This document shows positions 18,889 through 54,721 of a stretch of 54,721 bases of DNA, piece after piece; the first letter of the stretch is position 1; each line of letters opens with the position of its first letter. Made by a program: the position numbers and the translations under genes. This DNA is from a virus (lineage: Duplodnaviria; Caudoviricetes): IMG/VR virus record IMGVR_UViG_3300014962_000394, positions 1 to 54,721 of that record; one strand, given 5' to 3'. The notes beneath the pieces are model-generated. The model made no database searches, was not told where the DNA came from, and saw only the letters and a list, made by a program, of their open reading frames with translations.

Positions 18889-18899
18889 CTATAATCACC

Positions 18900-20069
18900 T
18901 TAATAATCTAATTTAATTTTTATGATCACTTCCGAACTTGATGTCTTTTTAATTGGTTTACTCAATTTAGCAACAGCCAATAATTCTCTTTCACTATTAT
19001 ACAAACCAACAGTTGATATGTATGTTACATTTCTATTCACATTTGTTAAACCACGTGAATTTACTCCTTGACCAGATGACAATAATAATGGTTTTATTAA
19101 TTGTTCACTACCAGATTCATAATAGGTTATATTATTACTATAATTAAATTCACCATTACCAATTCTTGCAAAATATATTGTAGAATTTATACTCTCCAAT
19201 GTTCTGCCTTTTGGTGCATTACTAGATGTTACTGCAAGTGCACCACTAATAGATGTAAATAATCTATAAGCATTTTCTGTACCACTTGATGTTGCTGGTG
19301 AACGATTTGTATACATTGAAGCAGAAACATCTAATGCCTTACCATTTAATACTATGAGACCTGCATCTGGATAAACAATCCCAAATGGAATTGATGAATT
19401 TGGTCCTGAATAGATACCTCCCATCAAACTACCACTATAAACATAATAGTATTGTCCACCTGGACCGCTTCTTACAAAATTATTTGTTTGTTGATATAAT
19501 CGACTTAATGATTCATCCACCAATTTAGTTACAGATGTTCCATCGGTTTGAATTTGAAAAGAACTACTCATTGAATGTAAACAAATTTCCCAAGATCCTG
19601 GTGCAAGTTTTTCTTTGTATCTAGATCTATTTACATTTATTACATATACGTATTCTGATGTTTCTGTGTATACATCAATCTCATTGCCTAAACTATCTTG
19701 CCCTCTATTTTGTGAAACAAATTCAAACAAATTTGTTTCAGAATTTAGTAAAAGTTGTTTGTATTGTGAATACATTACTTTTGATTCTAGCAAATATGAA
19801 TCTCCTCCTGATCCTGATGAAGATCCGCTATTTAAATAATCGCAATAAACTATACTAAATTGTTTTTCTGATCTACTTCCTGTGTTATTATACACATCCA
19901 AATAATACAATTTTTGTAAATATGATTGTATTGAACTTGTGTATACCGATTCTAAAGATGTTTTATTACCCGACCATAGTGGCCTTGAAATATAATCTCT
20001 CCTATCGTAAGAAATTGAACCTGTTTCAAAATCTTTGTAAACATAACTTTGTGCTAGTATTTCTGCCAT
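18900..20069 (-). CDS. Tail/baseplate protein (paralogue family member)
   Basis: FNYSNN.T...TYISTVGLYNSERELLAVAKLSKP. Confidence 0.65.
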   Translation of the reverse strand: MAEILAQSYVYKDFETGSISYDRRDYISRPLWSGNKTSLESVYTSSIQSYLQKLYYLDVYNNTGSRSEKQFSIVYCDYLNSGSSSGSGGDSYLLESKVMYSQYKQLLLNSETNLFEFVSQNRGQDSLGNEIDVYTETSEYVYVINVNRSRYKEKLAPGSWEICLHSMSSSFQIQTDGTSVTKLVDESLSRLYQQTNNFVRSGPGGQYYYVYSGSLMGGIYSGPNSSIPFGIVYPDAGLIVLNGKALDVSASMYTNRSPATSSGTENAYRLFTSISGALAVTSSNAPKGRTLESINSTIYFARIGNGEFNYSNNITYYESGSEQLIKPLLLSSGQGVNSRGLTNVNRNVTYISTVGLYNSERELLAVAKLSKPIKKTSSSEVIIKIKLDY

Positions 20070-21242: not shown

Positions 21243-21926
21243 TTATGGAGTTGTATTATTTGTAAATGTTGTTGTTACTGCCTGTGAAATTTTTATAGGA
21301 ATAACAAATCTTGCACCCGTTTGATTACCACTAATAATCAATTTGGTAGTTGCAACTGAACCTTGTGGTAGTTCTGTTCCTGTTGCCACAATAACTACTC
21401 CTTGGGAAGAAGCAACATCTGGAACTGAAACCGATCTACCTGCTAACATAGTAGTTTCTGTTGAAAATGTTGCATACGTATTATCTAATATATGATATGA
21501 GTATGAACTATTTGGATCGGTAATTTGTCCAGTAGAACTTAATTGAATTGTTCTTGGTTTTATAGGTCTTCCTAATACCTGTGTGGTTCTATTTGTTGTT
21601 AATTCTATAACGCCTGCCTGAAGACCCTCGCTTCTTGGATCAATATAAGGTATTTGAGTTGTACCTTGTGGCATTGTTATTAATTTATATTTAAGTGATT
21701 GAGTTTCATCAGGTACTGCTTCGGTTATTGGCATATTCTCAATAACTGCACCATAATAATCTGTACCACCTGGATGTGAAGGATTCCATAAATCATAATC
21801 AATTTCATCATCTGCAAGAGCAAATTGTGTAATATTGAATTGATTTCTTCCTTTTGCTAATAACTCTCGACCTTTTTTTGTCAATATTGCATCTACCGTA
21901 ATGGTAGTATTATCTAAATAACCCAT
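21243..21926 (-). CDS. Baseplate/tail-fibre attachment protein
   Basis: AILTKKGRELLA...ITQFALADDEIDY resembles the N-terminus of tail-collar/fibre (DUF3751-like) domains; GGAG upstream. Confidence 0.6.
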   Translation of the reverse strand: MGYLDNTTITVDAILTKKGRELLAKGRNQFNITQFALADDEIDYDLWNPSHPGGTDYYGAVIENMPITEAVPDETQSLKYKLITMPQGTTQIPYIDPRSEGLQAGVIELTTNRTTQVLGRPIKPRTIQLSSTGQITDPNSSYSYHILDNTYATFSTETTMLAGRSVSVPDVASSQGVVIVATGTELPQGSVATTKLIISGNQTGARFVIPIKISQAVTTTFTNNTTP

Positions 21927-22036: not shown

Positions 22037-25000
22037 TTATTGAATTTGTGGGAAAAATATACTATTTGGAACTTTTGGTCTACTTAAATCTATAAACATT
22101 CTTTGTGTAAATCCGTAATCAGGTCCTATATTTGGTACATTATTATTTGATCCAGACCATATTAAAACCCAAGGAAAAGATCTTATATGTTCTGGAGATC
22201 CAGGATAATTTAAATATTTTTTTGTTCCAACAATTACGGACTCTTGTAGATAAGTTGGTGAAAACAAATTTTTATCACTTAAATCTGGATGGTTAGTATC
22301 TAATATTATTATTCTTGGTGCACTATCTGTCATTCCATAAACATTTTTATTTGTTGCATCTGTAAAATAGTTTCCTCTTATTGCAGTTTTCCAATACTCA
22401 CTTTTTGGAAAAACATTATTTTCAACTAAATTATATGAACTACTTGGTATCCAGTCATATATTTTATTGTAAACTAAAGATAATTTATTATTTTTTTCAT
22501 GTGTAGGTCTTTCAAAATTTTCGTATATTTGTGTAAATTCTGTATAATCTTTTATGGGTGATATTATTTGGGTTAAACTTTCTAAAACTTTTTTATATGG
22601 ATATGCATAATCATTACAACCAAAAAAATCTCTATTTTTCTTTGGTAAATTTAAAGAATTTGGATGTATGTATGATGAACCACTTATTAATTTATATCCA
22701 TTATTTTTTAAATAAGTTTTACTTTGTATTGGATATACAGTATCATAATAATTTGTTTGTTCGTAATTTGATATTTCATTTTGGTTTGAACCAAAAATAA
22801 AAATTTCTTTATCTGATGAATTAAATTTTAAATTAAAATTAGCATAACCATTTACGTTTATTATATTTGATTTTACATTTAATTTATCAGAAAATTTTAT
22901 TTTACTAGGTATTGATTGAGTTTTTAAAATTATATTATTATCTGTTAATTCTGTTTTTAATGTAGATCCGTACGATTTATATTTTACATCAAATCTTCCA
23001 TTTCCACTTTTACCATCTATAAAATCAAAAAGTTTTATTTTTACATTTTTATTTATTGCCTCTCCACCCTTTTTAATTTGAACATCATGTTCTCCTTCTT
23101 TAATATTTTCATCAGTTTCTGTTAATATATCTGTGTAAATTTCTTTTTCTGTTTCTATATCATCCAATTTAATAATATCTCCATCATCAAATCCTATAAA
23201 CAAAGTTGTATTTTTTGTTGGGTAATATGTATTATTTGTACTTGGAAAAATATTAATATCATTTGATTCTTGATAATGTTCTGTATTTCCAGACATTCCA
23301 CGAACTGGAAGTGTTTTTGATCTTTCTAAAATATTTGGTTCAATTACAAGTCCCAATATTTCATTAGTTCTAATTGGAATTGTTTGTGCAATTTGTTCAA
23401 ATACACTAAAATCAAATTGTGATATTATACTAATATATGCATTAAAATCATTTCTATTATCATACTTTTGCCAATATTCGTTTGCAAACATTTTTAAATT
23501 GGTATATTCGTCTGATTGTATTGTAGAGTAATCACCTATAAATTCACTAATGTCTATACCACCTATTGCCTCGTAAATATCTTCATTTATTATATGTTGT
23601 GGTGAAAATGCCACCATCAATCTATTTGAATCTAAAGAATTTCTTTTTAGTGAAGTTCTTTCATATGAATTATGCATACTTAATGCACCACCCAAAGATG
23701 AAGATTCTATTCTAATTTTTTGTCCGTAATCAGAATGTGCACCTACACTAGCAACTTCCATTAAATACATTTCGGTTAATGGCTCAAATGATTCACTTGT
23801 AAATCCTAACAATATTGCATCTTTTGAAGAAGTTTCAAAGTTTTTATATTTTTGATTTGGATGACTACTTGATAAACTGTTTGTCACAAATAAATCAAAT
23901 GGTTGCCAAAATTTCCATTGGGCTTGCAAATCATAAAATGAAGAAGTTGCATCATTTCCATTATATGATCTAGCTGATAATACATGATTATTAAATGAAT
24001 CTTGTAATAATGCATTTGACCAATATCTTAATTCAAAAATTGAACCAGTTATTGGTGTTTGTGTTAAATTATTTATTCCTGATCCAATATAAAGTTTACC
24101 GTTTGAACTCCAAGATTCATTAAATTTAGATTCAATTGTACCGTCAATACTAATTGATCCTGATTTTTCTATTGCAAGTTTTCCATATTTTTCAGTTTTT
24201 AAAATAAACTCATATGTTTGATTTGAACCAGTTTGATCAGTTTGATTTAAACGTTTTATTAAAATATTTAAAGGTGTGTCATCAAAAAGGTATTCATCTA
24301 CTATTGATGTAGATTTTAAATTTGAACCACTTGAAATATAAAATGTAAGTGATCCTTTTTGAGGATCAGTACCATTATTGTTTATAGTTACAAACCAATC
24401 AGCACCATTTGATGAACTTTTTTGAAGTACAGTTTGATGTTCTGTTCCAGTGTAATTGTATAACTGATCCGGTTCCATTTTCCATCTAAATGAAACTGAA
24501 TCTGGATATAACCAATTATTATTGTAATTTACTTTTTCCCAAGGAACAGTTGCCTTTTGACTGCTTGATGAAACAAAACCTTCTATATTTAAATAATACG
24601 TTGGTTTTTCATACCATTTCTTCTTAAAATCGTATGTTTTTTCACTATAAGAACCGCCGTATTCTCTTATACTCAATAATGTTTGTGGTATACCATAAGC
24701 AGCAAGTAAAGCATTTATACCACGTGAAGTTCCTTTTGTTCTATAAATGTATGGTAAATTGTTTAAAATACGTCTCCAAACTTCTTTTGTTCTTTCTTCT
24801 TCGGTTTTATTGTATTTTTTACCTAATACATTATCTTTATTTTCTTCATCTTCATTTAATCCTAAAACATACTCCCACAAATTTTTATCTTGTGTATTTG
24901 ATGCAAGTTTCCAGCCAAAATGTTCTGTTACTTCTTTTATTAAATCCTGTGATAATCCAGATTTTGGATTTTCTTTTCTTAAATTTTTCTGTAAAATGTG

Positions 25001-40234: not shown

Positions 40235-40744
40235 CTAATGTGTTATTGAAAAAATATATTTTGTATTGCTAACCTTTCTTATGTTTACAATATCATATGA
40301 ATTTATTATATTATTTATTACATACAAAATGCTAAAATTGTAATCTTTTCTATATTTTTCTACATCCATTGTAAAAATTGTTTTGTAAGCAAATTGAAAA
40401 CATTTTTCAATGACTGTTGATATAAATATGTATTGTTTTTCTTCATAAATTGGTTTATCAAAAATTCCTGTAATTAATGCATATTCAAATACATGATATT
40501 CATTGTCTATAAAATCTTGCATTGTTCTTTTTTGGAAAGCATATTTGTCATATTCCGAATACTTTTCAATATATTCATCAATTTTATCCGATGGATCAAT
40601 ACCTAAATAAAAAACATCCGATGTACTATTTAATTTTTCTAATAAGTTTAATTCATTATCACATGAACCAAAATGTATTATTCTATCATCATTTTGTAAA
40701 CCAAACGATTTTAATTCTTTTATCAGATAATCAGAATATTCCAT
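40235..40744 (-). CDS. Degenerate class I methyltransferase-like protein
   Basis: IIHFGS...YLGID Rossmann-like pattern. Confidence 0.45.
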   Translation of the reverse strand: MEYSDYLIKELKSFGLQNDDRIIHFGSCDNELNLLEKLNSTSDVFYLGIDPSDKIDEYIEKYSEYDKYAFQKRTMQDFIDNEYHVFEYALITGIFDKPIYEEKQYIFISTVIEKCFQFAYKTIFTMDVEKYRKDYNFSILYVINNIINSYDIVNIRKVSNTKYIFSITH

Positions 40745-44537: not shown

Positions 44538-44573
44538 TGCTTTGATCTTTGAAGAAAATGCCTTATATTTGTA
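44538..44573 (+). promoter_or_regulatory. Early promoter
   Basis: TGCTTTGATCT-N15-TATATTTGTA. Confidence 0.8.
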
Positions 44574-44631
44574 GTATAAAATGATGACAACCAAAACAAA
44601 TATGAACAATTTTCAAAATAATTTCAAATAG

Positions 44632-44667
44632 TGCTTTGATCTTAAGAAAAAATGTCCTATATTTGTA
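44632..44667 (+). promoter_or_regulatory. Early promoter
   Basis: TGCTTTGATCT-N15-TATATTTGTA. Confidence 0.8.
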
Positions 44668-44705
44668 GAGTAAGAAAAACAACAACCACATTCAAGGATC
44701 TCAAA

Positions 44706-45038
44706 ATGAGAAAAGTAACATCCCTCGCCGTATCAAAATGGTTAATGCGTAAAAAATTCCGCAGAGACAATACACACACAGACGGCACAACATTATATCT
44801 ACATGGTCATGCTATTGCAAAGATTGATGATAGTGACGGAATGATATATGTTCGTTCTGCAGGTTGGGAGACTAAGACTACAAAAGAAAGATTGAACGGT
44901 ATTCCAGGTGTCCGTATTCATCAGAAAAATTGGATGTGGTTCTTAAATAACCAACCTTGGCCTCATAGCCAAAATTGGACACCAATCGGTAGATATTCTT
45001 CTGAAAATGGTGGTATGGTAATTACAAACCATATTTAA
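44706..45038 (+). CDS. Hypothetical early protein
   Basis: LHG..IA...GW.T.TTKERLN; start moved downstream of the promoter. Confidence 0.7.
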   Translation: MRKVTSLAVSKWLMRKKFRRDNTHTDGTTLYLHGHAIAKIDDSDGMIYVRSAGWETKTTKERLNGIPGVRIHQKNWMWFLNNQPWPHSQNWTPIGRYSSENGGMVITNHI

Positions 45039-45093
45039 TCTACCAACAAAAACGGTAATAACAAAAAATTTATTAAGATAAGGAAATAAAAAT

Positions 45094-45651
45094 ATGAAAC
45101 GCAAAGGAACTGCAAAAAAACAAACAAGAAATCTTGAAAATATCAAGATGCGAACCGTAACTTGTGAGGGTGGCAACCCAACAAGTAAATGGTATTCCGG
45201 CCGTGACTGCAACGAAAAACTGCGTGTCATGGAAGGCGTAGTCTCTGCCACTTGTTGGAAATGTGTTGCTGGAAAGATTCCTGGTCCTACTCTGAATGAG
45301 AAAACAGTTTCCACTGGTTTTCCTCGCGGCTGGAAATTCTTTAAGGAATTTGTCCATGAGAATGGCAAGGTATATCATAAGGGCGTAGAGAAGCCGGAAT
45401 TGTTTGGTAGTTTACCTGCAACGGAAATCAAACCAACGGAACCAAACAAGAAAAAGAAATTGACGCTCGATGATAAAATTTCTGCTGAAGTTACGAAGAA
45501 ATTGAAAAAGAAAAAGTCTCCTGCAAAGGCGGCTCCGAAAACTACGAAGAAAACTGCTAAACCGAAGACTGCTAAGGTAACGAAGAAAACTACAAAGAAA
45601 ACAACAACAAAATCTATTAAACCAACAAAAACAACCAGGAGAAAGAAATGA
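45094..45651 (+). CDS. Putative DNA-binding protein: Cys4 motif + histone H1-like K/T/A-rich tail
   Basis: C...C...CWKC; SPAKAAPKTTKKTAKPKTAKVTKKTTKK. Confidence 0.65.
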   Translation: MKRKGTAKKQTRNLENIKMRTVTCEGGNPTSKWYSGRDCNEKLRVMEGVVSATCWKCVAGKIPGPTLNEKTVSTGFPRGWKFFKEFVHENGKVYHKGVEKPELFGSLPATEIKPTEPNKKKKLTLDDKISAEVTKKLKKKKSPAKAAPKTTKKTAKPKTAKVTKKTTKKTTTKSIKPTKTTRRKK

Positions 45652-45938
45652 TTGATACCCCACAAGGAAAATGGTATACGGTTCCAGAAGTTGCAAAAAT
45701 TCTCGGATGTTCGTTTCAGTATGTTCGCCGTCTGACAAATGGAAGAACCCGAAAATACCAAAGTTACAAAATACATGAGAAACCAGTAGTTGATCAAACT
45801 CTTGTCCTCAAAGTCCAGAAAGAGAATCAGAAGAAAGTAAAATATCTGGTTCACGAAGATGCTGTTAAGTTGTTGGTAAATAAGAAATTATCAAAAATTT
45901 ACAAAAAACTTGAAAATAATGCTTTGATCTCTCAATAA
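45648..45938 (+). CDS. Helix-turn-helix protein (excisionase/MerR-like)
   Basis: WYTVPEVAKILGCSFQYVRRL; AGGAG upstream. Confidence 0.7.
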   Translation: MIDTPQGKWYTVPEVAKILGCSFQYVRRLTNGRTRKYQSYKIHEKPVVDQTLVLKVQKENQKKVKYLVHEDAVKLLVNKKLSKIYKKLENNALISQ

Positions 45939-45955
45939 AATGCCTTATATTTGTA
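45920..45955 (+). promoter_or_regulatory. Early promoter
   Basis: TGCTTTGATCT-N15-TATATTTGTA. Confidence 0.8.
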
Positions 45956-45999
45956 TATCTTAAAAAACAACCTTATTCATTTCTTACAGGAATTGTTCT

Positions 46000-46947
46000 A
46001 TGTCTAGAACCAAAACAACCAAAACCAAATCACAAAATTTGTCTGTTGCAGATATTGTTGCTACAGCCCCAACATTCCGTCCGGAATCTCTTATTCTATC
46101 GGACATAAAATGGAAATATCTTGTCCGTAGTGTTCTCCGTGGTCAAAATCTTATGATAACTGGTCCTGCCGGCTCCGGTAAAACTCTTGCCGTCCGAACC
46201 GTTGCAGATGCTATGGATAGACCGTTCTATTATTTCAATTTGGGTTCAACACAGGATCCAAGAACGGCTCTCATTGGAACCACTCATTTTGACAAAGAAA
46301 GTGGAACATATTTCAATCAATCAACCTTTATCAAGGCAATTCAAATTCCTGATGCAGTTATCCTGCTTGATGAATTGTCCCGTGCTCATCCAGAGGCATG
46401 GAATATCTTGATGACCGTTCTTGATGACGGACAAAGATATGTTCGTGTTGATGAAAGTCCTGATGCTGAAGTTATCAAGGTTGCACCTGGTGTTTCTTTC
46501 CTTGCTACCGCTAATATCGGTGTGGAATATACCTCAACCCGTGTAATTGACCGTGCTATTCAAGACCGTTTCCTCATTCTTGAAATGGACTTGTTGGACA
46601 AATCACAACAAGGCAAGCTAATCAATTATGTTTGTCCAAATCTTGATGAACAAACAGTTGATATTTTGACTTCAATCTATACACAAGTTTACAATGAGGT
46701 TCTTTCCGGTCACGGTAAAGTTTCAACCACTATATCAACCAGAACCATTCTTCGTGCCGCTGCTCTCATTTGTGACGGATTTACTATCGGTGAGGCACTT
46801 GAAGTGTGTGTATTCCCATATTTCACCGAAGAAGGTGGTGCTGATAGTGAGAGAACCTATGTTCGCCAGATTGTTCAAAAGTTTATTCCTATTGAAAGTC
46901 TAAACAATGACAATATGTTTGATGAAGGCGATACTGCTAAGAAATGA
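46000..46947 (+). CDS. MoxR/CbbQ/NirQ-family AAA+ ATPase
   Basis: GPAGSGKT, ILLDELSRA, ATAN, DRA..DRF, STR. Confidence 0.9.
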   Translation: MSRTKTTKTKSQNLSVADIVATAPTFRPESLILSDIKWKYLVRSVLRGQNLMITGPAGSGKTLAVRTVADAMDRPFYYFNLGSTQDPRTALIGTTHFDKESGTYFNQSTFIKAIQIPDAVILLDELSRAHPEAWNILMTVLDDGQRYVRVDESPDAEVIKVAPGVSFLATANIGVEYTSTRVIDRAIQDRFLILEMDLLDKSQQGKLINYVCPNLDEQTVDILTSIYTQVYNEVLSGHGKVSTTISTRTILRAAALICDGFTIGEALEVCVFPYFTEEGGADSERTYVRQIVQKFIPIESLNNDNMFDEGDTAKK

Positions 46948-46966
46948 AGATATGTTATTCACAAAT

Positions 46967-46998
46967 AGTAGTGTGGGGGTTCGCCCCCGCACTGCTTT
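46967..46998 (+). terminator. Strong UUCG-capped hairpin between the AAA+ and VWA genes
   Basis: AGTAGTGTGGGGG-TTCG-CCCCCGCACTGCT-TT. Confidence 0.65.
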
Positions 46999-47041
46999 AT
47001 ATTTATAGAAACAACCAATAACAACCATAAAGGGATATGTA

Positions 47042-49189
47042 ATGAGTAAATTCAAAAAATCAGTAAAGAGTATTCTTGCAGAAGCAAGTGCCAGAACAAA
47101 TCAATTTTGGAACAAATATGCTTCCGATTATACAGACGAGTATTCAGCCGGAACCAATTACTGGCTCAAAGGTAGTTTGTTTGACAAGAAGGAATCCATG
47201 TTCAAAGATGAATATGGTTTCAAAGAAGAAAAACATGACTATTTTGCACTTGCACAATACCAACGAGCCGTTGCAAACTTTGTTCATATTATGACCGGTG
47301 ATCCTAAAATTCGTGTCCAATACAACAACAATGGTCAAAATATGACCGATGGACAAACGGTTCACCTTTCTGCATCCGTAAATGAAAAAGACTTTGATTC
47401 AAATGTTGGTCTTGCCCTCCATGAGAGTAGTCACATTCTCTATACAGACATGAAAAAGTTTCGTGACGCAGTTGCTGACTTGGTATATTATTCACATCAA
47501 CACTTGACCGATGAAAATGGTAATCACATTTTTGACAGTCAAGAACAAGTAGATAAATTGTTTGAAGGGTATCGCGATAAACAAGAATTTTTCAAATCTG
47601 TTGTCAATATCATCGAAGACTTGTATATTGATGCCATGACATATACTGCTGCTCCCGGCTATCGTATTTATTACAAAGCTCTTTACAACAAGTTTTTTGG
47701 TGACGAAAAAGTTACTCGCGGTTTTTATGATGAAGAATTTATGAAACCTACCGCTCACAATTATCTTTTTCACCTATGTAATTTCCGCAGTCCATACCGC
47801 AATCTAAATGCTCTCCCTGCATTGCAATTAGTTTGGGACACACTTGACTTGCAGAACATTCGTAGATTGAAAACAGATGAAGACCGTATCAAACTTTCTG
47901 AAAGAATTGCAGGTATCATTCTCAAACAATTGAGTGAATTACCCAAAGACGATGATACTGACAAAGAACCTATTGACCAAGACGGCGATGAAGGAGGCGT
48001 AGGCGATGGTGAAGGTTATGACCATGAACCAATAGGTGGCAATCCTGGTCCTCAAATACCTGATGGCGTTAGTGACAAACCACTAACAGACAAACAGAGA
48101 GAACAAATTGAAAAGTTGTTCAAGAAACAATTAGACCTTATCAACGGTGAAACCAAAAAAACAAAATTGACAAAGGCAGAGGCACAAAAAGTTGATGCTA
48201 TAACATCGGTAGATTTCGATGAAGAAATTGTTGCAAGAAATTTTGTTGATGACTATGGTAGATTTAATCCACGCGGTGTCAAAACTTTTATTGTCCGTAA
48301 TATCAATAAAACATTCATGGGTAGTGAAGTATCCGCACCATTCGGTGTGAGATCATACGGTTGGAAAAGACGCGATATATCCAGATATATTGCTCTCGGT
48401 AAATTACTTGCTAAGAAGTTACAAATTCGTAATGAAGAAAGAGTAACTACATCTACCCGTCTCAAATCTGGCAGAATTGATGCAAGATTGTTACATGAAA
48501 TTGGTAGTAGTAATTATGACATATTCAAACAAATTACTATTCACGAATATCAACCGTCATATATTCACCTGTCCATTGACCAATCAGGTTCAATGAATGG
48601 TGACAAGTTTGAAGAATCAGTAAAACTTGCGGTTATGTTTGCAGTTGCTGCTAAACAAATCAAAAATCTTCATGTTGTTGTTAGTGCTCGTTCTGTATAT
48701 TCAGACAATTATTCGTATGGTAGAGGTAAATCAACAATGCATGATACGCCATATCTTATTTACCTATACGATTCCAACAAACATAACCTTGCTCATATCC
48801 GTGATGTGTTTGAAACTATACAGACAACAAACACAACACCAGAAGGACTTTGTTTTGAGGCAATCATGGGTGAAATTATGAAACAATCTGCTAATACGGA
48901 TGCTTACTTTATCAACCTATGTGACGGCCAACCATTCATGGTAAATGATAAAACACAATTTGCTTATCGCGGACAAGCAGCTCAACAACACTCCAGAAAA
49001 CAAGTTGAGCGTATGCGTGCTCGTGGTATCAATGTCCTCACATATTTCATCGGTAGTAGATACGAATTTCAAGATGTTGTGAATACATACAAGACAAATT
49101 GTGTTCATCTAAACCGTGCCGATGAAATTCCAAAAGTTGTTAAGGCCATGAATGCCGAACTACTATCTGCGGCTAAAAAGAATGGTTAA
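47042..49189 (+). CDS. VWA (CobT-like) protein with N-terminal HExxH domain
   Basis: LALHESSH, N.IED; acidic linker; MIDAS DQSGS...T...DG. Confidence 0.85.
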   Translation: MSKFKKSVKSILAEASARTNQFWNKYASDYTDEYSAGTNYWLKGSLFDKKESMFKDEYGFKEEKHDYFALAQYQRAVANFVHIMTGDPKIRVQYNNNGQNMTDGQTVHLSASVNEKDFDSNVGLALHESSHILYTDMKKFRDAVADLVYYSHQHLTDENGNHIFDSQEQVDKLFEGYRDKQEFFKSVVNIIEDLYIDAMTYTAAPGYRIYYKALYNKFFGDEKVTRGFYDEEFMKPTAHNYLFHLCNFRSPYRNLNALPALQLVWDTLDLQNIRRLKTDEDRIKLSERIAGIILKQLSELPKDDDTDKEPIDQDGDEGGVGDGEGYDHEPIGGNPGPQIPDGVSDKPLTDKQREQIEKLFKKQLDLINGETKKTKLTKAEAQKVDAITSVDFDEEIVARNFVDDYGRFNPRGVKTFIVRNINKTFMGSEVSAPFGVRSYGWKRRDISRYIALGKLLAKKLQIRNEERVTTSTRLKSGRIDARLLHEIGSSNYDIFKQITIHEYQPSYIHLSIDQSGSMNGDKFEESVKLAVMFAVAAKQIKNLHVVVSARSVYSDNYSYGRGKSTMHDTPYLIYLYDSNKHNLAHIRDVFETIQTTNTTPEGLCFEAIMGEIMKQSANTDAYFINLCDGQPFMVNDKTQFAYRGQAAQQHSRKQVERMRARGINVLTYFIGSRYEFQDVVNTYKTNCVHLNRADEIPKVVKAMNAELLSAAKKNG

Positions 49190-49658
49190 AACAAAATATC
49201 TCAAACGATTTGCAATGGCTCCGCCGGTTAAACCAATACCGGCGGAAACCATGTATCTTTCCAAGAACAAAGTGGATGATGAAACAATTGATACCATAGT
49301 TGATTATACAATGGAATGGTGTATAGAAAAATTTGGTATCAATGAACATAGAGGTAATCCGTATGTTTGTTGGGAATGGAATAGTCTTGATGGTGAAGAG
49401 GATAAAGATTGTCTTGCATTCTTCGATGACGATGACAATACAATTATCATTAGAGTTCGTGGTCATAGAACTGTAAAAAACTTTGTCAAAACTCTTATAC
49501 ACGAATACATCCATTACCTACAACCTGCAAAGGGCGGTTGGTATGAAAGATGGGAAGAACAATATGGGTATGAGAAGAACCCGTATGAAATTGAAGCATA
49601 CTATTTGAGTGACTTGTATGCACAAACCGCAACCAATTTTGTTATGGAAAAAATATAA
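49182..49658 (+). CDS. Zincin-like metallopeptidase
   Basis: TLIHEYIHYLQ...NPYEIEA; start uncertain. Confidence 0.7.
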   Translation: MVKTKYLKRFAMAPPVKPIPAETMYLSKNKVDDETIDTIVDYTMEWCIEKFGINEHRGNPYVCWEWNSLDGEEDKDCLAFFDDDDNTIIIRVRGHRTVKNFVKTLIHEYIHYLQPAKGGWYERWEEQYGYEKNPYEIEAYYLSDLYAQTATNFVMEKI

Positions 49659-49665
49659 AAAAGAT

Positions 49666-49699
49666 TGCTTGCTTTTTACACAAAAAAATGTTATATTTG
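49666..49699 (+). promoter_or_regulatory. Bacteroidota-type promoter
   Basis: TGCTTG-N20-TATATTTG. Confidence 0.7.
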
Positions 49700-49718
49700 T
49701 TAATAAACTTTTTAAGAT

Positions 49719-50051
49719 ATGAAACTACTATTTGAAATACTCAAAAACGGAATGAAATACACATTTTTGTTCATTCTATTTGTAATTTTGTCGGTTATAT
49801 TCTCAATTTTATTCATGTTTGGGTTTGCATACTACATAAAACTTTGGGAAATAATACCAAATGACTTACACTTTTTGTTGCTTATACTTCTTCCAATCAT
49901 TATTATTGTCGGTATAATAACAACAATAATAAAAAAAATATTTGGTAGTGATAATTCCGAAGAAAAACCTAAACAAAGACAACCAGTAGATATATTAGAA
50001 CTTGCTAAAACTATAAGAAAGGAAATAGACGATGAAAAACTCAATAAGTAA
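49719..50051 (+). CDS. Two-TM membrane protein
   Basis: Two hydrophobic helices. Confidence 0.65.
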   Translation: MKLLFEILKNGMKYTFLFILFVILSVIFSILFMFGFAYYIKLWEIIPNDLHFLLLILLPIIIIVGIITTIIKKIFGSDNSEEKPKQRQPVDILELAKTIRKEIDDEKLNK

Positions 50052-50235
50052 TATCTCAATTGAAACAATAAAAGAAATTTCCATAGTAATTCTTTTATTA
50101 ACTCTATCAGTGAGTTTCAGTATATTGGTGTGGGATTTACACAACCAATCAATATTAGACAGAGAATATGGAAAGTTACTCATACAAGAAAAAGAAATAC
50201 AATTGAAAACTATCGAAGACCATTGTGGTCACTAG
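50032..50235 (+). CDS. Small membrane protein
   Basis: One TM helix. Confidence 0.55.
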   Translation: MKNSISNISIETIKEISIVILLLTLSVSFSILVWDLHNQSILDREYGKLLIQEKEIQLKTIEDHCGH

Positions 50236-50245
50236 AATAAAAAAT

Positions 50246-50319
50246 GGGCCTTTAGCTCAATTGGTTAGAGCAAACGACTCATAATCGTTAGGTTGCCGGT
50301 TCAAGTCCGGCAGGGCCCA
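50246..50319 (+). tRNA. tRNA with CAU anticodon, most likely tRNA-Ile2 (lysidine)
   Basis: Cloverleaf GGGCCTT/AGGGCCC, anticodon arm AACGA-CTCATAA-TCGTT, GGTTCAAGTCC; C4-G69 and C5-G68 as in Ile2; CCA not encoded. Confidence 0.9.
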
Positions 50320-50336
50320 CACACATTAGGAACAGT

Positions 50337-50486
50337 ATGGAACCACTTACTATTGAAAAATTAGAATCTTCTATAAAAATTGCTAAGGAATGGCTTGAAG
50401 AAAATCCACATGATACTTGGGTTCAAAAAGGACTTGAAGTAATGGAACAAGAATTGAATAGATTGAAAGGAGAAAGATTTAAATAA
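50337..50486 (+). CDS. Small hypothetical protein (49 aa)
   Basis: Hand translation MEPLTIEKLESSIKIAKEWLEENPHDTWVQKGLEVMEQELNRLKGERFK; AGGA upstream. Confidence 0.6.
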   Translation: MEPLTIEKLESSIKIAKEWLEENPHDTWVQKGLEVMEQELNRLKGERFK

Positions 50487-50494
50487 TTACTCAT

Positions 50495-50562
50495 ACATAC
50501 CCCGCCCGCTTGGGGATGTTAGGGGCACCGTTTTCGTGGTTGTTTTCGGTGCCCCACTTTTT
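50495..50562 (+). ncRNA. Candidate two-hairpin sRNA/terminator with GUGGUUGUUUU loop
   Basis: ACAT-A-CCCC/GGGG-ATGT hairpin; GGGGCACCG-N16-CGGTGCCCC followed by a T-run. Confidence 0.5.
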
Positions 50563-50612
50563 ATTTTTGAGTATATTTATTGATATGGGTAAAACAATCA
50601 ATTGGATATAGT

Positions 50613-51038
50613 ATGAAAGATTTAATAACAGAAGGTAGAGAATTACAAGAAAAATTTTTATCATCTATGAATGAAGATGATAGTGATTTGGTTTCAAAAT
50701 CCAATGATTACCGAGTAGTACAAGACACAGATAACCATGTTCTTGCAATTCCAAGAAACTATAATGCTGTTAGAGAATTATTGGATGATACGAAGTGGGC
50801 ACAAACTTTCACAACTACAGCATTTAGTCGGTATCAAAAACAAAAATACACAATATATTTTATTGTTTTGAAAAAAGCATCACCCAAATACAACAACAAC
50901 AACTATAAAAAAATGGCAGTCCTAATAAGTCCATCTGGAGAATTTACTTGTTATGATTCAACCGGTTCACTAATTGATATAACAAATATCATAACCATAA
51001 CCGGAATACAAAGAAATGTATTTAAACAATTAAGATGA
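50613..51038 (+). CDS. Hypothetical protein
   Basis: ATG at 50613; TATTTAT upstream. Confidence 0.6.
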   Translation: MKDLITEGRELQEKFLSSMNEDDSDLVSKSNDYRVVQDTDNHVLAIPRNYNAVRELLDDTKWAQTFTTTAFSRYQKQKYTIYFIVLKKASPKYNNNNYKKMAVLISPSGEFTCYDSTGSLIDITNIITITGIQRNVFKQLR

Positions 51039-51044
51039 TATAAT

Positions 51045-51236
51045 ATGAAGGTTACGATAAAAGAATTGTCAGAAAAAATTGAAATGATGGACAAAAGAAT
51101 TGATATTATGATGTCAATGGTCAATCATCTTAATTCTATAATAACAGACAACGCAATCCAAAAAATAGAAATAGATTTTGAAGAAGCGGTAAATAGAAAA
51201 ATACAATCCATGGATCAAGAACAATCTGAACAATAA
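51045..51236 (+). CDS. Small coiled-coil protein
   Basis: ORF in operon. Confidence 0.55.
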   Translation: MKVTIKELSEKIEMMDKRIDIMMSMVNHLNSIITDNAIQKIEIDFEEAVNRKIQSMDQEQSEQ

Positions 51237-51238
51237 AA

Positions 51239-51412
51239 ATGATAGTAAAAAAGAAACTTACCTTATTTGAAGAATCCTACAATGAAGGTTATACACAAGC
51301 AATGGAAGATATGTTGAATAAACTATACGATAAATTTCCAAAAAGTAAATCAAAATATTCACAAATAATAGATGAAATACTTTCATCATTTGAGGAGGAT
51401 AAGAATGAATAA
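51239..51412 (+). CDS. Small hypothetical protein (57 aa)
   Basis: Hand translation MIVKKKLTLFEESYNEGYTQAMED...; fills the gap exactly. Confidence 0.55.
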   Translation: MIVKKKLTLFEESYNEGYTQAMEDMLNKLYDKFPKSKSKYSQIIDEILSSFEEDKNE

Positions 51413-51641
51413 TAATATATCATTCCCCCATCTATATGAATTGATAACGGCAGATGGCGAAACGTTTTGGATAAATGTATCTAATATAGATAAGATAGAA
51501 TACTCCAGACAAAGTGCAAATTGGTGTAATGTATATTTAAAAGACAACACAACGCCATTTCTAATTAAGAATACACCAGATGAATTTTATGAACTGATAA
51601 TAGAAGATTATTTAAGATTGAAAGAAAGGTATCGTCTATGA
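51405..51641 (+). CDS. Hypothetical protein
   Basis: GGAGG upstream of ATG 51405; WINVSNI..IE motif. Confidence 0.6.
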   Translation: MNNNISFPHLYELITADGETFWINVSNIDKIEYSRQSANWCNVYLKDNTTPFLIKNTPDEFYELIIEDYLRLKERYRL

Positions 51642-52531
51642 AAAAAACAAAAGGGATAATACTTGCAGGTGGACTTGGTACAAGATTATATCCTGCAACG
51701 TCTGTGGCGAACAAACAATTGTTACCCATACATGATAAACCAATGATATATTATCCACTCGCCACATTGATGCTTGCAGGTATCAGGGACATTATGATAA
51801 TATCAACTCCAGTAGATATTCATAATTTTGAAAGAGTATTGGGAAGTGGTAGAGATATTGGTCTGAATATAACCTATGAGATACAATATGAACCAAAAGG
51901 AATATCTGATTCATTCATCATAGGTCAAAAATTTATAGGTGAAGACCAAGTTTGTCTGATACTCGGTGATAATCTTTTCTATGGTAAATTAGATTTCCTA
52001 CGAAAGGCAATCAACGAAAATAGGGGTGGAACTGTATTTGGTTATGAAGTCAAAGACCCACACCGCTACGGTATCGTAGAGTTTGATAGTGATAACCGTG
52101 TCGTTTCTATTGAAGAAAAACCAAAAGAACCCAAATCAAACTACGCCATACCCGGCCTATACATTTTTGATTCCCATGTCGTTGGTATAGCCAAATCAAT
52201 AGAACCGTCAGCGAGGGGTGAATTAGAAATCACGGATGTACAAAGGGCATACCTTGATAAAGGATGTTTAGATGTAGTAAAGATGGGTAGAGGTATCACA
52301 TGGCTTGACACCGGAACACCAGAGAGTTTAATTGAAGCAAGCCAGTTCATCAGTATAATAGAAAACAGACAAAATCTTAAAGTTGCTTGTCTTGAAGAAA
52401 TTTCTCTTGATATGGGATATATTACAACAACAGAATATAAAAAATTATTGTCATATATGCCCAAATCACCATATAAAGATTATTGTCAGAAAATTTTATT
52501 AGACAGAACTAATATATCAAGAAATGATTAA
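51638..52531 (+). CDS. rmlA: Glucose-1-phosphate thymidylyltransferase
   Basis: GIILAGGLGTRLYP, KQLLP..DKPMIYYPL, LGDN, EEKP, SARGELEITD, WLDTGT. Confidence 0.95.
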   Translation: MKKTKGIILAGGLGTRLYPATSVANKQLLPIHDKPMIYYPLATLMLAGIRDIMIISTPVDIHNFERVLGSGRDIGLNITYEIQYEPKGISDSFIIGQKFIGEDQVCLILGDNLFYGKLDFLRKAINENRGGTVFGYEVKDPHRYGIVEFDSDNRVVSIEEKPKEPKSNYAIPGLYIFDSHVVGIAKSIEPSARGELEITDVQRAYLDKGCLDVVKMGRGITWLDTGTPESLIEASQFISIIENRQNLKVACLEEISLDMGYITTTEYKKLLSYMPKSPYKDYCQKILLDRTNISRND

Positions 52532-52569
52532 TAATAACATATTTAGATAATAGAAGGTATTTTGTCACT

Positions 52570-52695
52570 ATGAAATACAGAAATTATTTGTTTCAGAAGT
52601 TTGCAGGTCGTGTCATTCGTTGGATGATGAATCATCCACTCATAACACTCATACTGATTATCATAACAGTTGTATTAATGTCCTCTGGCAAATAG
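52570..52695 (+). CDS. Small membrane peptide (41 aa)
   Basis: Hand translation MKYRNYLFQKFAGRVIRWMMNHPLITLILIIITVVLMSSGK. Confidence 0.45.
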   Translation: MKYRNYLFQKFAGRVIRWMMNHPLITLILIIITVVLMSSGK

Positions 52696-52766
52696 TCTAC
52701 TAATAGTAACAAATATAATAATTGAAAATTCGTTACAGATGACTAAACCAATAATGGAGTATCGTT

Positions 52767-52979
52767 ATGAAAAGAAAAGATACTATTTTAAATGAATTGA
52801 ATAATGTAAAACCAATTATTACAAGTTATGATATATGGATGGGATTCATTATCTTAATAGGTATGGTTGTTATTATTTTTGCTACTATGCATTATGCAGA
52901 AACAAAATCCAATTGGATTCAAAAGGACACCAATGTTCGAGAAGAAACTATACAACATTTCAATCCTAACATTCCGTAA
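52767..52979 (+). CDS. Small membrane protein
   Basis: GGAG upstream; one TM. Confidence 0.6.
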   Translation: MKRKDTILNELNNVKPIITSYDIWMGFIILIGMVVIIFATMHYAETKSNWIQKDTNVREETIQHFNPNIP

Positions 52980-52985
52980 ATAATT

Positions 52986-53076
52986 TTTCTTCCAATACCC
53001 GTAAAGTATTGGGGAGAGTTGGGGAGGCCATAGGTATCAACTGTTCATTCTCCGTGTAGGCCTCCCCTATTTTTTT
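52986..53076 (+). terminator. Two-hairpin element ending in a terminator with a 29-nt loop
   Basis: TTCCAATAC/GTATTGGGG hairpin; GGGGAGGCC-N29-GGCCTCCCC-TATTTTTTT. Confidence 0.65.
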
Positions 53077-53090
53077 AAAACTATGTAAAA

Positions 53091-53639
53091 TTAAAATAGT
53101 GTCATTGTCTGAATGGATGGAAACAGAATCCAAACTGCATACCAGATGATTACTGAATATATGGTTATGTGCAGGACGGGTAAACCGCCGGTTTCTCGGC
53201 CATTGATTTTGTCCCATATTCCCATGGGTGTCCACCATAACCAGAACATATTACCATAACCTAACATATCTTTTAATTTGCCCATTAGAACATAAAAAAG
53301 AACATCACACACGCCCATCCACCATAGGTAAATAAAACCTATCGTTGTCCATAGATTCCAATGTGTGAGTAGACCAAGAACTAAAAAAATCGTCCATTGA
53401 AATACTGTTTGAATGATGCGGTATCGGACTAAATTATCTCTATCCTTTGAATTTTCTACGGAAGCATATCCGAACACATCAAAGGCAGTAAAAATAATTA
53501 AACCGAATGCCAGTATAAATGGGTTTGGGATGTCTATGAACGCACTACCAATTAAACCTAATAGTGAGAAGACTATGGCTGGAAACGCCCAATCCCTTCT
53601 AATAAGGTTAATAAATAAATTACCGTCTCCGTCTCTCAT
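53091..53639 (-). CDS. Polytopic membrane protein
   Basis: About five TM helices, Trp-rich; AGGAG upstream. Confidence 0.7.
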   Translation of the reverse strand: MRDGDGNLFINLIRRDWAFPAIVFSLLGLIGSAFIDIPNPFILAFGLIIFTAFDVFGYASVENSKDRDNLVRYRIIQTVFQWTIFLVLGLLTHWNLWTTIGFIYLWWMGVCDVLFYVLMGKLKDMLGYGNMFWLWWTPMGIWDKINGRETGGLPVLHITIYSVIIWYAVWILFPSIQTMTLF

Positions 53640-53717
53640 ATCTTTCTCCTATTAGTAAAAAATGATTACATAGATAATTATAGGTATAATAATTTTACCA
53701 ACCGACTGGAGTATGTT

Positions 53718-53909
53718 ATGTTTATGAGAAAAGATATTACCGAACTGAACCCCAATGAAAACCTACATCAAATGGCAAATGACTTGATATTCACAAGTGC
53801 TGGGGAATTGATGCAAGTTATTGTAGAGAAGAAAGAGAAGAAAGGATGTGATAATGGTTGTGAATGCCAGGATTGTGATGATGACCATGGCGACAATGTA
53901 ACATGGTAA
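53718..53909 (+). CDS. Small protein with Cys/His-rich C-terminus
   Basis: GCDNGCECQDCDDDH; GGAG upstream. Confidence 0.55.
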   Translation: MFMRKDITELNPNENLHQMANDLIFTSAGELMQVIVEKKEKKGCDNGCECQDCDDDHGDNVTW

Positions 53910-54003
53910 TTTAATTATTATACCCATCTGGGTATCCCAGGAAACGATTTTCCTATAGCAAAAAATTGGCTCCGGTCTGGAAACGGACTAGCCCCGGCAG
54001 GCC

Positions 54004-54194
54004 TAACCCCCTACCCCATAAGGATTTACGTTAAATACCCCCACTCCCCCTACCCTCTCTATCTCTATAAAAATCAACAACTTATGTCACCCCCCTCCCC
54101 CTACCCCTCATTTTCCTAACTCATTGCGCAACATAGGGTTAGCCACCCCCTCCCCTAACTTATTGCAGTGTAAGGACTTAACCCCCCTCCCCCC
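54004..54194. repeat. Four 25-bp imperfect palindromes interleaved with poly-C tracts
   Basis: Copies at 54004-54028, 54060-54084, 54117-54141, 54156-54180; CCCCC(A)CTCCCC-type spacers. Confidence 0.75.
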
Positions 54195-54196
54195 TT

Positions 54197-54215
54197 ATTT
54201 AGACTAAATCTAAAT
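54197..54215. promoter_or_regulatory. 19-bp inverted repeat, possible Fur-type operator
   Basis: ATTTAGA-CTAAA-TCTAAAT just upstream of an early promoter. Confidence 0.4.
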
Positions 54216-54234
54216 TACACTTTTTTTAAAATAG

Positions 54235-54270
54235 TGCTTTGATCTTTCATGCCAATCACTTATATTTGTA
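54235..54270 (+). promoter_or_regulatory. Early promoter
   Basis: TGCTTTGATCT-N15-TATATTTGTA. Confidence 0.8.
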
Positions 54271-54305
54271 TAAGAAAGTTGATAATAACCCTATACGGAA
54301 TGACT

Positions 54306-54428
54306 ATGAAATACCTTAAAAACCTCGTAACTACCTTATTTCTCATAGTGTTATGCTATGGTATTACCGTTCCTACGGTATCTAATGGTAAAAAAAATGT
54401 AGTTACCACCGTAAAAAAAGATAAATAA
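54306..54428 (+). CDS. Small membrane/secreted peptide (40 aa)
   Basis: Hand translation MKYLKNLVTTLFLIVLCYGITVPTVSNGKKNVVTTVKKDK. Confidence 0.45.
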   Translation: MKYLKNLVTTLFLIVLCYGITVPTVSNGKKNVVTTVKKDK

Positions 54429-54464
54429 TGCTTTGATCTTACGAAAAAATGCCTTATATTTGTA
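54429..54464 (+). promoter_or_regulatory. Early promoter
   Basis: TGCTTTGATCT-N15-TATATTTGTA. Confidence 0.8.
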
Positions 54465-54504
54465 TTAAGATAATAACAACAACCACTATTAAGGAAACAA
54501 CCTT

Positions 54505-54721
54505 ATGAAAAAGAACAACAGAATCCATGAGTACCAGGTTACAGTAACCGGTTTCCAACCTAATGGCGTGCCAGTATCTATGGATATGCTCGTCCATGCC
54601 AATACAGAGACAGCTGCTATGTTCAAAGCCGAGGATATTCTTATGAATACCTATGGTATTGATAATGCTATTACAGAGTCTATCGAATTGAATCGTTATG
54701 AGAATAACACTGGTGCAGGTT
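54505..54721 (+). CDS. Early hypothetical protein (partial, runs off the window)
   Basis: Hand translation MKKNNRIHEYQVTVTGFQPNGVPVSMDMLVHA...; AAGGA upstream. Confidence 0.65.
   Translation, partial: MKKNNRIHEYQVTVTGFQPNGVPVSMDMLVHANTETAAMFKAEDILMNTYGIDNAITESIELNRYENNTGAG

Follow-up and report, generated by a model that had tools for sequence, protein, structure and literature searches.

A 54.7-kb fragment of a large freshwater phage of Bacteroidota (IMG/VR record IMGVR_UViG_3300014962_000394, positions 1 to 54,721, hereafter the window; estimated completeness, 26%) was analyzed for a short motif, ACAACC, that recurs in the leaders of early genes, and for a hairpin whose loop is complementary to it. 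The structural arm occupies the minus strand (175-43654) and the early arm occupies the plus strand (43664 to the window end). In its extended form, (A)ACAACC(A), the motif is a sharply defined, strand-specific box that is under selection and occurs only among the early genes. The hairpin, at 50522-50555, displays a 16-nucleotide (nt) loop that is identical in all relatives in which it was found, and positions 7-14 of this loop are perfectly complementary to the 8-nt core of the box. The best reading of these observations, on which we are close to evenly divided with a slight inclination to doubt, is that the early genes are repressed in trans by an RNA derived from the 3' end of one early operon.

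Relatives were taken from IMG/VR and from metagenomes and were sorted into three groups. The close lineage comprises G010 (137 kb) and L006-L010, in which a 715-amino-acid (aa) early gene product shows 83-86% aa identity. In the deeper lineage (G006, G007, L331, and L328, the last of which stems from a 197-kb metagenome record), identity is 51-53% over the best segment given by the search tool and 56% over the whole alignment. A sister group (G001, G002, G005, and G009) shares the promoters. A viral protein scan with alignment gave no further relatives beyond the known ones, and no likeness at the DNA level was found between the window and any named phage. Completeness estimates indicate a genome size of ~175-200 kb for the clade.

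An exact box confined to early genes

The early promoter consists of TTTG at -33, a 19-nt spacer, and TATATTTG at -7, and five exact copies are present on the plus strand and none on the reverse strand. This arrangement matches the Bacteroidota sigma-A type (TTTG at -33, a spacer of ~19 nt, and TAnnTTTG at -7); in Flavobacterium psychrophilum, the -7 box spans positions -12 to -5 (PMC9723704). Plus-strand copies of ACAACC lie at 44587, 44682, 45631, 45967, 46015, 47011, 47021, 54479, and 54497. The coordinates that the original prediction had assigned to the boxes and the hairpin were all correct, and its leader sites are real, except that two copies are within genes: 45631 falls in the 3' end of the coding sequence (CDS) before it, and 46015 is inside a CDS. 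The box-like AAAACAACCA that contains the former (45628..45637) may be partly a coding accident.

The early arm (11.1 kb) holds 13 sense-strand copies of ACAACC, 7 within 1,510 noncoding nt and 6 within ~9.6 kb of coding sequence, and the late arm (43.6 kb) holds 7 on its sense strand. Between -40 and +3, the motif was present at 5 of 21 early versus 0 of 35 late genes (Fisher p = 0.005); in the interval of the original prediction (-40 to +20), the counts were 5/21 versus 2/35 (p = 0.09).

The box occurs in two settings. In the promoter-proximal setting, it lies at about +12 of the transcript after Bacteroidota-type early promoters. It was found in 55 of 129 unique promoter-downstream sequences, and in 41 of these 55 the first box was 15-16 nt after the -7 element; the spacer between the two elements varies freely among promoters and among orthologs. 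When promoter-downstream sequences were clustered clade-wide, 31 of 87 carried the box compared with 2.7 expected from dinucleotide shuffles (maximum of 8 in 1000); many of the 87 are unrelated chance matches of the promoter pattern. Among 27 non-redundant promoter-proximal boxes, the only conserved flanking positions were -1 and +1 (A in 25/27 at each), with no preference at -2 (9/27), and the selected core is thus AACAACCA. Promoter-proximal boxes had a predicted unpaired probability of 0.82-0.97.

In the second setting, of which the original prediction had a single example (54495), the box stands directly against the start codon in the stereotyped arrangement AAGGAA-ACAACC-ATG, which is plentiful in relatives just past the point where the window ends. 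Boxes ending 0-3 nt before an ATG were found for 10 of 54 early-zone open reading frames (ORFs) in G007, 3/32 in G010, 4/29 in G006, 7/36 in G001, and 3/20 in G002, versus none of 847 ORFs outside the early zones of the same five contigs, all counts being based on mechanical ORF calls that include spurious ones. At 428 unique starts in the family loci that are preceded by a GGA resembling a Shine-Dalgarno (SD) sequence, ACAACC was the hexamer at -6 to -1 in 42 cases, the runner-up in 7, and one-mismatch neighbors in at most 4. These start-adjacent counts are not fully independent because some of the genes are paralogs that share upstream blocks. In G007, several small paralogs have the same intergenic block, TATTTTAATTACCG, ahead of their AAGGAA-ACAACC-ATG sites (18862-19904 and 22355-22916), and its recurrence suggests that start-site cassettes spread by tandem duplication.

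Strand specificity was apparent in G010, where the early 14 kb contains AACAACCA 12 times in sense and once in antisense orientation, and the other 123 kb has 3 copies on one strand and 4 on the other. Nothing in 596 Gb searched with the strict pattern pointed to general use of the box by hosts: the promoter-plus-box pattern gave 17 single matches, mostly in Bacteroidota and at most two per genome. One leader, in a Flavobacteriaceae genome bin from a deep lake (L348), was nearly identical to a phage-family leader; the contig that carries it probably comes from a phage of the family and was binned with a possible host.

A conserved hairpin module with a loop complementary to the box

Hairpin 2, as we refer to the hairpin at 50522-50555, is part of a discrete conserved noncoding module with small-RNA-like architecture. 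The module consists of a single-stranded 5' block, hairpin 1 (50495-50519), a short variable linker, hairpin 2, and a U run (50556-50568), and its fold has a z-score of -3.6. Hairpin 2 has a 9-bp stem (50522-50530 / 50547-50555) with 8 G-C pairs, followed by ACTTTTTATTTTT. In an alignment of eight relatives, conservation begins right after the stop codon of the upstream ORF, and it does so in three different upstream contexts. The module is single-copy in each genome region searched, and within it only the loop stands out as a seed beyond A/T-rich noise.

All 16 loop positions are identical in 11 distinct module variants from three lineages. The 9-bp stem is nearly invariant, with only two changes, both of which give G.U pairs, and pairing in hairpin 1 is kept by compensatory changes at three pairs (CCCC/GGGG versus CTCC/GGAG). 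Other sequences have diverged over the same distances. At fourfold-degenerate sites of the 715-aa gene, the window is 0.48-0.52 identical to G006 and G007 and 0.69 identical to G010, and G006 and G007 are 0.71 identical to each other. An ordinary terminator at 46967-46996, used as an internal control, has a wholly different stem and loop in G006 and G007; the two boxes just after it, which precede the 715-aa gene, are retained in G006, G007, and G010. The linker, 5' block, and hairpin 1 of the module have also diverged among relatives. Because the fourfold sites, control terminator, and linker have diverged, loop identity is not due to recent transfer or recent common descent, and the loop is under very strong purifying selection.

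Hairpin 2 almost certainly terminates transcription. It shares with intrinsic terminators a GC-rich 9-bp stem and a T run at an operon end. It differs from them in its loop, which is 16 nt long rather than short (3-8 nt; 4-6 nt in the other plus-strand terminators of the arm) and is frozen in sequence rather than free to change, whereas the neighboring terminator drifted completely. It also has features expected of a trans-acting small RNA, namely a conserved, accessible seed and a terminator hairpin within a conserved noncoding module, with complementary sites at or near start codons.

The original prediction had an RNA being processed downstream of the transfer RNA (tRNA). The module is indeed always downstream of one or more phage tRNA genes, at a distance from tRNA to hairpin that ranges from ~200 to 870 nt among relatives. 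It is not directly adjacent to them, as a conserved 49-aa ORF (50337-50486) intervenes in the window, G006, and G007, and the module starts after the stop codon of whichever ORF is upstream.

The combination of stem and loop was restricted to the clade. The exact 16-mer loop was found in 55 stretches, only 8 of which also had the stem, all from the clade. A search with fixed flanks and a free core of 4-10 nt returned the same 8 stretches and one unrelated GC-rich match. With the stem pattern and any loop, at least 119 stretches matched; among the matches listed, 26 had a T-rich tail (≥6 of 12 nt), and 1 of these had this loop. When a covariance model of the module was run over 750 kb of loci, only the 4 known copies ranked above E = 0.2, and the next match was a plain terminator in G001. 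A metagenome protein scan gave 18 loci, with the identical loop in all 8 that reach the site; 8 others stop short of it. The hairpin was not found in G001, G002, G005, or G009, although boxes are present there; this is uninformative rather than contrary because these fragments lack the syntenic region. The most distant loci, L334 and L335 (48-49% identity), have neither the exact family promoter string nor the loop string, and their sense strand carries ACAACC no more often than background (6 copies in 9 kb and 4 in 16 kb). Rfam gave no match to the module at E values up to 10 except a chance SAM-II match inside an ORF, and only the tRNA scored when the window was scanned at the gathering threshold. 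A near-copy of the loop core, TTTCGTGGTTGTTT, occurs upstream of the tRNAs in L007 (13170-13190) and L010 (13205-13240), apparently inside a hydrophobic coding region.

The complementarity between loop and box had been proposed from the window only; it holds over the 8-nt core defined by selection and continues over the AUG. The CG that precedes loop positions 7-14 pairs with the UG of AUG or with an AC that follows several promoter-proximal boxes. For the loop alone, predicted duplexes with canonical early start sites span 12-14 bp (-15.2 to -18.1 kcal/mol), and those with the promoter-proximal boxes of the window have energies of -10.3 to -13.4 kcal/mol. RNAcofold of the module with a target is uninformative, as a loop-to-target contact is not representable there. 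From base composition, the chance that a 16-mer holds TGGTTGTT is ~1e-4 (~1.4e-3 for GGTTGT). Allowing for ten or so candidate loops, chance complementarity is at or below the percent level and is thus unlikely.

Proposed mechanism and alternative explanations

In the mechanism that we favor, the module would be transcribed as the 3'-terminal part of the early operon to which the tRNA gene belongs and would end at its own terminator. It would accumulate as a stable small RNA, either cut from the mRNA or left as its terminated 3' end. The GC-clamped terminator hairpin would display the 16-nt loop, the center of which, 5'-UGGUUGUU-3', would pair in trans with (A)ACAACC(A) on the early mRNAs of the phage. 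At start-adjacent boxes (AAGGAA-ACAACC-AUG), the CGU of the loop would also pair with AUG, giving a duplex of 12-14 bp. This duplex would extend from about -10 to +3 and keep the 30S subunit from binding. Where the box is near +12 from the 5' end, pairing may act on stability or on standby binding and ribosome loading. As the RNA accumulated, early gene expression would be switched off across the class after a delay, in an RNA-based equivalent of T4 RegA and RegB. The sequences show the box, its limitation to early genes, the invariance of the hairpin, and the complementarity; the existence of the RNA, its pairing, and an effect of repression rather than activation are inferred from these.

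Several results weigh against this mechanism. The module has no visible promoter of its own upstream, and no further copy of its 5' block was found. Being U-rich, the loop forms loose pairs with A-rich leaders of any kind; in the window, -9 kcal/mol was reached at 11 of the 21 early start regions and at 5 of the 35 late ones, and as many early windows attained this energy or better with 4 of 300 shuffled loops. Among start-adjacent boxes that differ at one position, wobble-preserving transitions were not in excess (6 transitions and 7 transversions). Loop and box, which the original prediction had suggested comparing in related phages, are both invariant in every relative found, with no variant loop in the viral contigs or the metagenome loci, so the relation is one of co-conservation and not of covariation. 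The invariant 9-bp stem is not required for a seed and hints at a constraint from a protein or at the DNA level, and a single gene would need to titrate dozens of sites. Finally, part of the start-adjacent pattern has a simpler cause because positions -3, -6, and -12 of AAGGAA-ACAACC-ATG are all A, and A at these positions promotes translation under the Kozak-like rule of Bacteroidia, as reported for Flavobacterium (PMC6847099).

That last point also fits an alternative in which a protein or the ribosome, not an RNA, reads the box, the hairpin is a terminator or 3' stabilizer conserved for other reasons, and the complementarity is coincidental. We regard this as a serious possibility, though we are inclined to think it wrong. 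The reader could be a phage factor like RegA or RegB that represses or cleaves, a host factor acting on early transcripts, for example in antitermination, or the ribosome itself, with the box as a cis-acting translation signal of the early class. The sharpness of the box and its restriction to the early class would suit any sequence-specific factor equally, T4 uses exactly such logic with proteins (PMC3014915), the invariant stem suggests protein recognition of the hairpin, and variants of the box lack a wobble signature. The early arm also encodes uncharacterized small proteins, including a Cys-rich, Lys-rich 185-aa protein without a family match. Such a reader, however, leaves to chance (~1e-4 to 1e-3 per loop) a centered complement of 8-11 nt in the sole invariant loop. 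If the box were a Kozak-like or unstructured enhancer, its neighbors ACAACA and AAAACC should be tolerated, yet they are tenfold rarer than ACAACC; a signal for efficiency should also serve the heavily expressed late genes, and none of the 847 ORFs outside early zones has it. RegA (PF01818) or RegB (PF10715) was matched in none of five records (G000, G010, G001, G002, and G007), a weak point against a protein of this kind as these are fragments and no positive control matched.

Two further explanations seem improbable to us. The box might be a double-stranded DNA operator at about +12 at which an early repressor, such as the helix-turn-helix (HTH) protein encoded at 45648-45938, blocks the early promoters, the copy in the loop being a further operator in the opposite orientation. 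The fixed distance of 15-16 nt between the -7 element and the box, seen in 41 of the 55 promoter sequences that carry one, and a weak HTH_17 match in an early gene, below the Pfam cut-off, are consistent with this, and an operator would account for the motif in both orientations. The strong strand bias in the G010 early zone (12 sense versus 1 antisense) argues the other way, a site within a terminator loop has no evident logic, and many boxes abut ATGs inside operons, far from promoters, which points to RNA rather than DNA as the target. Just as improbable, or marginally more so, is a loop that acts only in cis, with the 3' end of the operon mRNA folding back on its own leader boxes (45964 and 47009/47020) and tuning stability or translation without any free small RNA or regulon. 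Pairing between the 5' and 3' untranslated regions of one mRNA reportedly occurs in bacteria, in icaR of Staphylococcus; the module has no promoter of its own, and it ends an operon whose leaders carry three boxes. Most boxes, however, are on other transcripts (those of P1, P2, P4, and P5, and those with the start sites past the window), and a fold-back would leave these needing a separate explanation.

Neighboring features, known systems, and biological meaning

The features of the early arm that bear on the module and the box are listed in Table 1. The P1 leader (44538-44631) runs directly into P2, and relatives have two or three such units in tandem at ~95-nt spacing. The early operon at 46000-49189 encodes a MoxR-type AAA ATPase (AAA_5 and CbbQ_C) followed by the 715-aa protein, which has no Pfam match; our impression is that the two resemble a CobS/CobT-like or MoxR/VWA pair. 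At 53021-53075, convergent genes are separated by a second GC-rich stem, GGGGAGGCC / GGCCTCCCC, whose loop measures 28 nt and which also has a T run, and no counterpart was seen in the excerpts of G006, G007, and G010 that were examined at approximate coordinates. SD-like sequences (AGGA, AAGG, or GGAG) are found 7-10 nt before the starts of most genes in both arms (for example, 15922-18888, 21243-21926, and 40235-40744); Bacteroidia ribosomes reportedly ignore such sequences unless bS21 is missing (PMC9976891, PMC13000453).

Table 1. Coordinates of promoters, boxes, genes, and RNA elements in the early arm of the window
Feature	Position	Strand	Details
Promoter P1	44538..44571	+	Followed by box ACAACC at 44587-44592; conserved leader of ~60 nt with no conserved ORF
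Promoter P2	44632..44665	+	Box AACAACCAC at 44681-44689, in the leader of gene 44706-45038
Box-like AAAACAACCA	45628..45637	+	Within Lys/Thr-rich 3' end of CDS 45094-45651; 11 nt before ATG at 45648
Promoter P3	45920..45953	+	Box at 45964-45972, in the leader of MoxR-type AAA ATPase gene 46000-46947
Ordinary intrinsic terminator (internal control)	46967..46996	+	4-nt loop; 3.5 kb upstream of module
Weak -7-like element TATATTTA and two boxes	46998..47027	+	Boxes at 47009-47016 and 47020-47027; leader of 715-aa gene 47042-49189
Putative promoter-like site, no box	49665..49699	+	Nearest such site upstream of the operon ending at the hairpin, as read from the sequence
Operon ending at hairpin	Genes 49719-50235, tRNA, ORF 50337	+	
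tRNA-Met (CAT)	50246..50320	+	tRNA-Glu and tRNA-Met here in relatives
49-aa ORF	50337..50486	+	Between tRNA and module; 58-64% identity over 37-39 aa in G006, G007, and G010
Conserved noncoding module	50483..50568	+	~86 nt; candidate small RNA or operon mRNA 3' end
16-nt loop TTTTCGTGGTTGTTTT	50531..50546	+	Center TGGTTGTT complements box AACAACCA; CGT complements ATG with one G.U pair
Promoter P4	54235..54290	+	Variant box ATAACC at 54285-54290; ACAACC in the G010 ortholog
Promoter P5	54429..54507	+	Promoter-proximal box at 54478-54486; start-proximal AAGGAA-ACAACC at 54495-54502, before ATG at 54505, the first of the stereotyped start sites

Genes for bS21 (PF01165, above the curated cut-off) are present in relatives at G010:88663-88812 (+), G001:107971-108120 (-), and G002:110686-110835 (-); no copy was found in the window or in the G007 fragment. 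As freshwater phages of Bacteroidota that encode bS21 have been described (PMC9723584), the clade can be placed among or near them, and virus-driven control of translation initiation is therefore a plausible theme for it. No lysogeny genes were found in the examined parts of the phage.

The candidate RNA has partial counterparts. The CI RNA of P4 and the c4 antisense RNAs of P1 and P7 (Rfam C4) are small, stable phage RNAs that are matured from longer transcripts. As with the module, the exposed loop is complementary to repeated sites, which in their case are in the leader of the controlled operon; unlike it, they are immunity factors of temperate elements in enterobacteria with two or three targets in one operon, whereas here the phage is large and there are dozens of sites on many transcripts. 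Membership in the C4/CI family was rejected, as no covariance-model match was obtained in the window or the module. T4 provides a parallel in outcome: the endoribonuclease RegB and the repressor RegA exert class-wide, posttranscriptional early shut-off through short motifs in early initiation regions, middle and late messages escape, and the regulator itself is made early (PMC3014915). Both T4 regulators are proteins, and the sites that they recognize are GGAG or A/U-rich; here, the motif is ACAACC and its candidate reader is an RNA loop.

Small RNAs derived from the 3' ends of bacterial mRNAs, and Rfp18 of Flavobacterium, similarly combine a terminator hairpin and U tail with a conserved single-stranded seed, and they address many targets at one pairing region; in Rfp18, the seed is in a stem-loop and the host belongs to Bacteroidota (PMC9723704). 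In those cases both the genes and the targets belong to the host, unlike the present case, in which both are viral and one exact box defines a temporal class. Abundant RNAs of ~100 nt beside or between tRNA genes are also known from virulent phages, namely sRNA1 and sRNA2 of PAK_P3 and the band C and D RNAs of T4; these are reported to have no known function, and only single 11-nt matches to phage genes are given, with no common target box (PMC4933390). The idea that PAK_P3 sRNA2 targets many ribosome-binding sites is contradicted by the same text (PMC4933390). In the literature searched, supplements aside, and including a review of phage small RNAs (PMC12197685), we found no published phage RNA aimed at a box common to a whole temporal class, in agreement with the original prediction, which knew of no such system. 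In its way of working, the candidate would resemble known trans-acting 3'-end small RNAs and the loop-to-leader antisense RNAs of P4 and P1.

To our knowledge, the end of the early program is understood in only a few cases of large virulent phages among the model phages, and always through proteins. If the proposal is true, one small RNA would control an entire temporal class by way of one common box, a simple regulon, in a phylum that does not use SD pairing and that, as far as we know, lacks Hfq. Should the RNA model fail, the exact, early-only box next to the start codon would still stand as a clear cis element, and something must read it. If true, the combination of promoter and box would also give metagenomic phage annotation a handle for calling early genes in this clade. 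In its fullest form, which is possible but which we rather doubt on present sequence evidence, the proposal is that a virulent Bacteroidota phage of ~175-200 kb labels all of its early genes with a single exact RNA box, at the transcript 5' end and at the start codon, and then erases that class with one 3'-end-derived small RNA whose loop covers both box and AUG. Taken with bS21 in the relatives, this would amount to a two-part viral takeover of translation in hosts from a phylum with ribosomes that disregard SD sequences, with the RNA silencing early starts and bS21 retuning the ribosome for late ones.

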